DNA of 64,000 nucleotides from Escherichia coli (GCF_050920415.1 NZ_CP169309.1); one strand, 5' to 3'; shown: positions 13,330 through 15,016, numbered from the stretch's first letter. Notes: generated by a model from the letters alone, not told the origin. Numbers and translations: made by a program.

Positions 13330-13958
13330 GCAGATAATTTACTCTCTACGTAATCAACCTGATTTGCCGAATCCCGCTCATCGGCGATGATATCCCCCGT
13401 AATGCGTGGTCCTTATTTCCGATAAGTTTACTTGAGTCTTTAGCTTCCCATTTCAGCCCACTCTCCCCTGTGTGGGCTTTTTTCATTTGTCTGCTTCAGT
13501 GAGTAGCTGGCAATGCTCCATCCACTCTGCAAGGATGATAATAAGAGGATCTGATTCAGAAGAGTTTTGAAAAATTGGACCGCCATCGAGGCCTCGAACC
13601 CCGTACCATACAACAATCCTGGTTGTCGTCTGCTCTTCCTGATGAGCTAATGGCGGTTTGTGATATGAGCCTTACAGCATATTGTCTGTCAGGCTTGAGT
13701 GCGATGCGTAAGATACAGAAAAGACCCCACACAAACATGATGGAATTATGAATTTTTTCATATGAATGTCAACCAACACATTCATAAAACATTCGCACAA
13801 GTTCACTTTTTAAGCAACATGACGCCGATCACAACAAAATATCGGCGAAAAAGGAGGGTAAATGCCATTTGACGTAGAGATAAGCAGATGAAATGATTAC
13901 CCGCTTTGCGATTCACTCTCTGATGGAATAACAAATTGGAGAGGGAAAAGTTTCTAAA

Positions 13959-14774
13959 CTAAAGAGTGTAGCGTATTTTAACGTGCTTATTTACAGGATA
14001 ATATTTGTCACCTAATTCCTGCACTCTATTAGATACCCATTGATTTAATCGTGCATCATCTCTGTATGTTTTCACGTTCAGAACGGAGAGCAATAACATC
14101 ACTAGCGATTCAGGAAAAACAGGGTAAAAATTTTTTAAGTGCAATAATAATTCATACGCAAGCGCCTGCTTAATAGGTGCGTCTGCGTCCGGAATGCGCG
14201 ACATTTCGCGAAGCCATTTTTCTACATGCTCACATTCTTTCCCTTCACGGAAAAGTCTCAACAAAGGCATATGGTGCTCAAGAAGAATGCATTTGCAATC
14301 TGTTCGTACTGAATCGATAAACTGCACTAATTTCTTAAGTCCGGTGAAGCGTCCGGCATGGATATTCTCTTTAATATCAAGAAACACGTCATCCTGATCA
14401 TATACCCAAACGGTCCCTTTTTGATTTTCAAGTATCCGAAAAACAAACTTAATCGGGTAATCAGGGTAATCCACCCAGTCATAAACTCCAGGGAAATCAT
14501 TAAACTGCACATTTATGGTAAGCGCATTGTCGGCTGCCCACTCGCAATCTCGTACGGCAGCCATGAGATAAATGAGTTTATCATCATCGACTAAATCATC
14601 ACGACAATCATAAGGATAATCATAGTATTGTTTAATCAAAACCTTGAATATATCGACACAAGAAACCAGTGTACTTCTGATATCTTCAGGTAACTGATTG
14701 TTTTTAACCGTATTGTGTACGCTTTGTTTCGTATATAGCAACAAATTATTGTGCGGCGCTTTTAATGATATCAT
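13959..14774 (-). CDS. yahL: Uncharacterized protein YahL, 271 aa
   Basis: Intact 271-codon ORF in an AT-rich segment; length and position match K-12 yahL; no recognisable domain. Confidence 0.65.
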   Translation of the reverse strand: MISLKAPHNNLLLYTKQSVHNTVKNNQLPEDIRSTLVSCVDIFKVLIKQYYDYPYDCRDDLVDDDKLIYLMAAVRDCEWAADNALTINVQFNDFPGVYDWVDYPDYPIKFVFRILENQKGTVWVYDQDDVFLDIKENIHAGRFTGLKKLVQFIDSVRTDCKCILLEHHMPLLRLFREGKECEHVEKWLREMSRIPDADAPIKQALAYELLLHLKNFYPVFPESLVMLLLSVLNVKTYRDDARLNQWVSNRVQELGDKYYPVNKHVKIRYTL

Positions 14775-15016
14775 TGCGATCTCTCTTAAATAAAAATAAA
14801 CGTCGCAGATAATAAAGCCCTGATTAAACCAGGCACTATCAGAAATCGCTCATAACTAATATATGCAGCATTGTGTACTGGAGGGAATTAATTTAACAAT
14901 TTGAATTTACGTTATAGATTTTACTGCTACTTAGATAGTATTTCGCCCTTCTTAACTAAAAAGTTAAGTGGAGGGCGAAATTAATATGTTAAATCATAGA
15001 GCATTTATTAATTTTT

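Follow-up and report, generated by a model that had tools for sequence, protein, structure and literature searches.

Probable mosaic structure of the yahN-yahK interval of Escherichia coli, with an invariant tRNA-like element of putative phage descent

The segment described here occupies positions 13330 to 15016 of a stretch of Escherichia coli DNA of 64,000 nucleotides (nt) (GCF_050920415.1, NZ_CP169309.1), which we refer to as the window. The genes present are those of the E. coli prp-yah neighborhood, in reversed orientation relative to K-12. A reading made from the sequence alone (the sequence-only reading) had described the interval as one AT-rich orphan segment, comprising yahL, a gap with only short open reading frames (ORFs), and a palindrome next to yahK, and had proposed that it is horizontally acquired DNA that has been kept. 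The features that we recognize in and around it are as follows, each with the evidence by which it was placed.

12697-13329, plus strand: yahN (ORF list and annotation).
13346-13586, minus strand: yahM-like frame, frameshifted, whose ATG coincides with the 3′ acceptor strand of the tRNA-like element (Prokaryotic Genome Annotation Pipeline [PGAP] annotation of strain MFDS1022581, which has the identical sequence).
13455-13484, plus strand: intrinsic terminator of yahN, AGCCCAC-N10-GTGGGCT followed by a T-run, within the yahM frame of the opposite strand (sequence reading).
13556-13738, minus strand: xtpA ORF, 60 amino acids (aa), enclosing the tRNA-like element (ORF list and MG1655 annotation).
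13576-13656, minus strand: tRNA-like element, 81 nt (ARAGORN).
13745-13772, minus strand: near-consensus sigma-70 promoter, TTGACA-16-CATAAT, 11 of 12 positions matching (promoter scan).
13946-14780, no strand: block of about 835 bp missing from yahL-less (B2-type) E. coli (alignments, annotation of UTI89 and FDAARGOS_1297).
13959-14774, minus strand: yahL, 271 aa (ORF list).
14940-14981, minus strand: predicted bulged RNA stem-loop, 36 nt 3′ of the yahK stop codon (folding and comparison).
15017-16066, minus strand: yahK, NADPH-dependent aldehyde reductase, whose transcript would bear the stem-loop (ORF list and annotation).

The interval is poorer in G+C than its flanks, as the sequence-only reading had noted. 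Its GC content is 0.389, compared to 0.501 for the whole window, and 1% of windows of equal length are as low. The value falls stepwise from the yahN-yahL gap (0.428) through yahL (0.385) to the yahL-yahK gap (0.306), and the flanking genes yahN and yahK stand at 0.498 and 0.535. Composition is atypical also by the GC content of third codon positions (GC3), for which yahL has the minimum among the 42 long ORFs of the window (0.373, z −2.1).

Other Escherichia neighborhoods were reached through YahN orthologs. Directly after yahN, both E. albertii and a third Escherichia lineage (L213/L214) have the promoter and the tRNA-like element. The DNA past the xtpA promoter varies, with yahL, yahK, and ATP-binding cassette (ABC) transporter genes in the window, yahL-yahK-yahJ in K-12, and yahJ in E. 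albertii. In L213 (Escherichia sp., GCA_036173185.1) genes for an SNF2-family helicase and an EH-signature protein (positions 5955-10633) adjoin the promoter; this is the usual combination in ZorD/ZorC of Zorya anti-phage systems, and the junction can carry defense genes. Outside the genus, prpR-yahO-yahN synteny is kept in Salmonella bongori and Citrobacter, unrelated genes start 57 to 80 bp after yahN, and nothing of the yahN-yahK segment is present at this syntenic site. Neither the ORFs nor the annotation includes an integrase or transposase, and the interval has no long terminal repeats or att-type border repeats. Acquisition from outside, as had been proposed, is nevertheless supported by composition, by restriction to the genus (including the confinement of yahL to Escherichia), by the empty site in these sister genera, and by a phage-derived element described below. 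We also looked for normal codon usage and GC content and for well-characterized homologs of yahL, and found neither; the idea of acquired DNA survives, in a weakened form.

The segment belongs to an uncommon haplotype, matched at 99% identity or more by only 6 of about 5,200 records. Synonymous divergence (dS) from K-12 is 0.24 in prpR, 0.27 in yahO, 0.16 in yahN, and 0.085 in yahK. Since neighboring genes are thus also highly divergent (dS of 0.16 to 0.27), the whole prp-yah neighborhood (10541-13329 and 15017-16066) is a divergent haplotype.

All ORFs in the 630-bp gap between yahN and yahL are indeed short (60 aa or less), but the statement that the gap holds only short ORFs missed its content, namely xtpA and the tRNA-like element. 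One of these ORFs is the annotated gene xtpA (b4845 in the curated MG1655 record), from whose product the XtpA of the window differs by two substitutions. The element within it is the sole tRNA-like gene that ARAGORN reports in the window, labeled tRNA-Ser(gga). It folds into a cloverleaf with a minimum free energy of −30.8 kcal/mol, and has a perfect 7-bp acceptor stem, a D arm (GG), a T arm (GTTCGA), and an encoded 3′ CCA, all as in a canonical tRNA. The “anticodon” arm is aberrant: in place of the canonical 5-bp stem and 7-nt loop (U33, purine 37) it forms a 7-bp stem with a 6-nt loop or, alternatively, a 7-nt loop with A33, U37, and 4 extra nt at position 26. A search of 161 nt around the element with the Rfam tRNA model (RF00005) gave no match even at E ≤ 10, and we therefore call the element tRNA-like rather than a tRNA.

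The element is present in 5,204 of 5,426 complete E. coli genomes. With an 87-nt query, made up of the 81-nt element and bases of its leader, identity was at least 97.7% in all but 44 records, and the usual single mismatch was a leader base. Not one of the 81 columns is variable across six Escherichia lineages, which include lineages that differ from E. coli by 13 to 17% in yahN. The element's own promoter and leader, in contrast, vary in 34 of 126 columns (P = 8e-9), and yahN varies in 25% of all columns and 57% of third positions (P = 5e-11 or lower).

Could this conservation merely reflect the coding of XtpA (or YahM), or the persistence of a dead phage relic without function? In favor of this, xtpA is an annotated gene with a reported regulatory peptide as its product, and the missing Rfam match and the noncanonical anticodon arm would suit a relic. 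Coding does not explain the invariance, however, because both frames are broken where the 81 nt are identical. The xtpA frame has TAG at codon 4 in L087 (a further lineage), E. albertii, and L213, and the ratio of nonsynonymous to synonymous polymorphism (pN/pS) in its N-terminal half is 0.33 to 1.05. The yahM frame, 81 aa long in K-12-type and B2 strains, has 48 aa in the window, 11 in L087, 31 in E. albertii, and 14 in L213, and so lacks the frame conservation among relatives expected of a protein-coding gene. About 43 nt separate the element from the yahN stop codon in L213, which leaves no room for yahM; the yahN terminator, kept in all E. coli haplotypes and in E. albertii, is missing from that lineage. 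Moreover, all of the approximately 27 third-codon positions within the element are unsubstituted, against the 57% that vary in yahN, and a dead relic would diverge like the flanks do. We consider both forms of this explanation unlikely.

A second alternative is that the sequence is kept at the DNA level, as an attachment site or recombination hotspot, which would explain the lineage-specific cargo. tRNA genes are classic integration sites, and lineage-specific DNA does lie past the promoter in the window, K-12, E. albertii, and L213. This variable DNA is on the 5′ or promoter side, however, whereas integrases that target tRNA genes act at the 3′ end. Nor are there integrase genes or att repeats nearby, and full invariance over 81 nt is more than an att core requires, which leaves this explanation very improbable in our judgment. 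The comparisons indicate instead that selection acts on the 81-nt nucleotide sequence itself, and not on the XtpA or YahM frames. The invariance would be accounted for most simply by a function at the RNA level.

The element is homologous to the middle (argN-slot) member of the ileZ-argN-argO tRNA arrays of lambdoid and Shiga toxin (Stx) phages, with identities of 76 to 87% and E values down to 6e-19. Near-identical acceptor, D, and T arms and a similar spacer before the element are shared with arrays of the 933W type and of phiP27. Among 49 distinct phage variants these three arms are constant and the anticodon arm is variable. The majority are canonical tRNA-Arg (UCG or UCU); the chromosomal element is nearest to the aberrant minority, and its closest subtype (phiP27/L186) already has an aberrant anticodon arm. 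The phiP27 counterpart occupies the stretch left unannotated between ileZ and argO, just 5′ of stx2e. This homology points to descent of the element from the argN slot of Stx-phage tRNA arrays. Unlike the phage members, which lie between ileZ and argO in the late region of the prophage, the chromosomal copy is solitary, flanked by yahL and yahN, has its own sigma-70 promoter and a further remodeled anticodon arm, and is fixed in the genus. The leader 5′ of the element was considered as a remnant of ileZ and rejected, as its local score to the ileZ 3′ end was no better than those of shuffled sequences. A leader hairpin at 13668-13695 loses pairs in L087.

The promoter, which is conserved across the six Escherichia lineages, runs from 13772 to 13745 and would place the transcription start at or near the first base of the xtpA start codon (13738). 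According to its RegulonDB v12 entry, which credits Muto et al. (2022), xtpA has a leaderless mRNA and is reported to encode a regulatory peptide. The locus and sequence in the window are those of this published locus, and the promoter geometry fits a leaderless start. The window strain differs in that its overlapping yahM frame is broken, and our comparison shows that beyond E. coli conservation extends to the tRNA-like nucleotides and not to the peptide frame. A start site for “yahM” and repression of yahMp by integration host factor (IHF) have been reported from Reg-Seq (bioRxiv 10.1101/2025.05.13.653802). On account of its geometry, we take this “yahM” promoter to be the xtpA promoter. Relative to K-12, the window is without a 40-bp block (TTTTTTATACACCGCATGGCTGCGAAACCACTACTGGTGC in K-12) at 13805/13806, just 5′ of the −35 box, and its loss might alter the reported IHF control. 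We suggest that transcription from the sigma-70 promoter, reportedly repressed by IHF, begins at the xtpA ATG and gives a leaderless RNA that would run through the tRNA-like element.

What, then, is the selected product of the xtpA locus? We tentatively propose, at slightly less than even confidence, that it is the tRNA-like RNA, a domesticated aberrant tRNA from the phage argN slot that acts as a tRNA mimic, and that the XtpA frame is a young, E. coli-specific overprint opened by a TAG-to-TGG change at codon 4. The same may apply to the aberrant copies in Stx phages such as phiP27.

The gene yahL has a different distribution. As had been stated, its product is without a recognizable domain: there was no match in Pfam (best E value 0.35), NCBIfam, PHROGs, PADLOC, or the PDB sequences, and neither profile, sequence, nor fold places it in a characterized family. 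Searches of 5.8 billion and 1.84 billion proteins returned as relatives only E. coli/Shigella sequences, fragments, and chimeras, bar one, P0024, a distant paralog from an E. coli genome that is 26% identical over the full length (E = 1e-11). The P0024 locus (L005, positions 8001-8828, E. coli GCA_009799345.1) is neighbored by genes for a 1,350-aa intimin/invasin-like protein, a TPR class-II chaperone-like protein, and an SseC-like translocator (type III secretion). In E. albertii, a 208-aa YahL-like ORF (L212, positions 4163-4806) between yahO and yahN is 23% identical to YahL (E = 3e-10). The start region of this ORF has 78% identity over 60 nt to the yahL 5′ region (window 14794-14853), which suggests that yahL-type genes may move along with their 5′ region. 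We also considered YahL as a remote relative of DUF2686 (YjfZ/YjiC; E. coli restricted, about 270 aa) and dropped the idea when BLASTP found no match.

The YahL of the window is 87% identical to the common allele, and a third allele is at 78%. Between the window and K-12 the ratio of nonsynonymous to synonymous divergence (dN/dS) is 0.19 in yahL, compared to 0.035 to 0.06 in neighboring genes; this marks yahL as a true coding gene whose constraint is relaxed. It occurs only in E. coli and one related lineage. About 1,165 of the 5,426 complete E. coli genomes (approximately 21%) cover only half of the segment. In the two of these that we inspected, UTI89 and FDAARGOS_1297, the 835-bp block from about 13946 to about 14780 is gone, from a few bases 5′ of the yahL start codon to about 15 nt beyond its stop. 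The block is bordered by similar imperfect 13-mers, TTTCTAAACTAAA (13951-13963) and TCTCTTAAATAAA (14782-14794). Because the yahL-less strains retain the yahL 5′ region, the absence is best read as a secondary deletion. The description of the segment as kept therefore fails for yahL; the part that is strictly kept is the tRNA-like sequence. Judging from these distributions, the probable history of yahL is a gain, its own 5′ region included, once E. albertii had split off, followed by deletion in the B2-type lineage.

YahL has been published as one of the E. coli/Shigella “conserved signature proteins,” with YdjO and YjfZ, and a yahL quantitative PCR (qPCR) marker has been reported as exclusive to and conserved in E. 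coli/Shigella (PMC11057252). Our searches confirm that YahL belongs to this group and is without homologs outside Escherichia. In contrast to that description, it is not universal, has divergent alleles, and has two distant paralogs. By eye, the window allele has about 3 mismatches to the published forward primer (PMC11057252). Expression of YahL in K-12 is reported at less than 1 part per million (bioRxiv 10.1101/038851), and the gene is, in our view, dispensable, a genuine protein gene of very low expression confined to Escherichia. Peaks of the sigma-28, sigma-24, and sigma-32 holoenzymes in genomic SELEX (systematic evolution of ligands by exponential enrichment) lie inside yahL, at K-12 position 343660 of an older assembly (PMC5493296), a hint of internal promoters within this AT-rich gene.

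Between yahL and yahK lies the palindrome, a long imperfect hairpin located by the sequence-only reading at exactly 14940-14981 and without a T-tract, as it had said. Its folding energy is −22.1 to −22.7 kcal/mol (z −6.6 to −7.7), and none of 200 shuffled sequences was equally stable. In a sliding fold, used since a repeat search cannot represent a bulged hairpin, it ranked fourth by GC-corrected stability among 12,788 60-nt windows on both strands. A 10-bp G+C-rich outer stem encloses an inner stem of 6 to 7 bp, with a bulge. The hairpin has the stable G+C-rich stem-loop after a stop codon expected of an intrinsic terminator and lacks the U-run: no T-run follows on either strand, the tail being AUACUAUCUAAG, and the terminator scan gave no call. 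A smaller hairpin at 14819-14833, terminator-like by the scan, was dismissed since it is not conserved in L087.

The hairpin was found in 5,088 of the 5,426 complete E. coli genomes, at a median of one place each and always 3′ of yahK. We rejected a dispersed repeat (repetitive extragenic palindromic [REP] or bacterial interspersed mosaic element, or the ends of a miniature inverted-repeat transposable element), as there is a single copy per genome. It is retained in the yahL-less strains FDAARGOS_1297 and UTI89. E. albertii has no yahL here and only a short yahK 3′ remnant, located 3′ of yahJ, yet the hairpin is recognizable with its outer G+C-rich stem intact. Across five lineages, 89% of cells are paired, compared to 39 to 50% in slid controls. 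One pair is U-A in K-12, U·G in L087, and C-G in the window, and U·G occurs at four further pairs. In yahK-sense RNA the structure is stable in all five lineages (−17.6 to −22.9 kcal/mol, z −3.8 to −8.6; z −6.6 to −8.6 among E. coli haplotypes), and in antisense RNA it is lost in L087 (z −2.4) and E. albertii (z −0.4).

These data also bear on the possibility that the palindrome is a DNA operator, at which a dimeric regulator would bind the TTAAC-N6-GTTAA dyad or the outer GC arms and control yahL. The inner dyad is perfect in E. coli and lies about 165 bp 5′ of the yahL start, and the absence of a U-tract means that the hairpin is not a canonical terminator. We nonetheless hold this to be quite unlikely. 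The palindrome is kept where yahL is missing (B2 strains, E. albertii), E. albertii has a degenerate inner dyad and retains the outer stem, and the changes are compensatory or wobble, so that half-sites are not preserved and the wobbles pair on one strand only. The comparisons suggest rather that the hairpin is an RNA structure ending the transcript of yahK or of the upstream operon, and neither a DNA site nor a part of yahL. Because there is no U-tract, it would most likely serve as a 3′-end-protecting or end-defining (exonuclease-blocking) stem-loop, or as a weak terminator. With Rho-independent terminators and 3′ stabilizing stem-loops it shares a G+C-rich stem, a 4- to 6-nt loop soon after a stop codon, and folding of the sense RNA; it differs from the terminators in the missing U-tract and in its long, bulged, two-tiered stem (about 22 bp at most, in K-12). 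The hairpin is unannotated but ordinary in kind. In an Enterobacter, yahK is followed by an ordinary stem and T-run with no sequence relation to it.

Taken as a whole, the interval is probably a mosaic at a variable junction 3′ of yahN, confined to Escherichia, whose pieces have separate histories. We picture the tRNA-like module as having been gained first and fixed in the genus. The hairpin would come second, tied to the upstream operon and the 3′ end of the yahK transcript, and yahL would be a later addition that a large E. coli lineage has since lost. The original idea of a single AT-rich orphan island, acquired once and kept, with the palindrome as, for example, its boundary or recombination site, would agree with GC that is low throughout and with the empty syntenic site in Salmonella and Citrobacter. 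We judge it highly improbable. The parts differ in phylogenetic distribution, with the tRNA-like module in every Escherichia lineage sampled and with both module and hairpin occurring without yahL. The junctions of the yahL indel (about 13946 and about 14780) lie 160 bp from the palindrome, which goes with the 3′ end of yahK rather than with an island, and integrase, transposase, and long terminal repeats were not found.

Several observations weigh against the mosaic as we have drawn it, or against one of its parts. The phage origin rests on about 90 to 100 nt of similarity, the promoter and the remaining leader having no phage match. The order of yahL gain and loss is based on few lineages, and the structure models of YahL are unreliable (predicted local distance difference test scores of 51 and 57), with fold searches returning only generic helical repeats or YahL itself. 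Covariation in the hairpin is not significant, as pairing at least as complete as that observed arises in 31 of 500 shuffles (five sequences, one compensatory pair); with five sequences it is therefore suggestive and not proof. Finally, a weak promoter-like match of 9 of 12 positions ends at 14993, and the hairpin could instead be a 5′-terminal structure of a yahL mRNA.

Other parts of the window deserve brief mention. A second variable junction lies 5′ of yahK (16153-18077 and beyond), where the window, B2 strains, and L087 have sugar ABC-transporter genes; K-12 has yahJ-yahI and a 75-nt gene fragment instead. Among the matches listed, the closest YahK relatives outside Escherichia are from an Enterobacter (88%), followed by beta-proteobacteria and Pseudomonas (79 to 84%); such similarity is unusually high for such distant taxa and suggests that yahK may itself be horizontally mobile. 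The stretch from 57000 to 59500 is comparably AT-rich (GC as low as that of the yahL segment), with strong hairpins at 59401-59460 and 57431-57590, and further AT-rich stretches or low-GC3 ORFs occur at 20400-21600 and 51045-51929. At 44022-44062 there is a 20-nt palindrome, 95% complementary (CTGTAAATATCCTGGCATTA / TAATGCCAGGATATTTAAAG), which is the top GC-corrected local fold in the window (z −5.9). Between prpR and yahO, a sub-threshold match to naRNA4, a REP-derived nucleoid-associated RNA, was found at 12100-12173 on the minus strand (25.7 bits, E = 0.14); a strong local fold at 12131-12190 overlaps this stretch, which is probably a REP-type element.

The xtpA and tRNA-like locus, yahM, and the orphan yahL were already annotated or published. 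What is new here is the phage ancestry that we propose, the reading-frame-independent invariance, and the observations that the xtpA frame was opened specifically in E. coli, that yahM is not conserved, and that not all E. coli genomes have yahL. The overall meaning is modest, yahL being a known orphan, the hairpin ordinary looking, and the tRNA-like/xtpA locus published in 2022. Because the yahM frame is not conserved, expression data for “yahM” (microarrays, Reg-Seq) almost certainly reflect the xtpA/tRNA-like transcript. Since yahL is absent from about one-fifth of complete E. coli genomes and has alleles that are only 78 to 87% identical, it is of limited value as a qPCR marker for all E. 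coli. If our proposal for the tRNA-like RNA is true, the mimic would be, for example, a decoy for a tRNA-binding enzyme or nuclease, a substrate of one, or a processing signal. The element thus offers a testable case of a phage tRNA-like RNA that would have been domesticated genus-wide and over which a peptide frame may have arisen.

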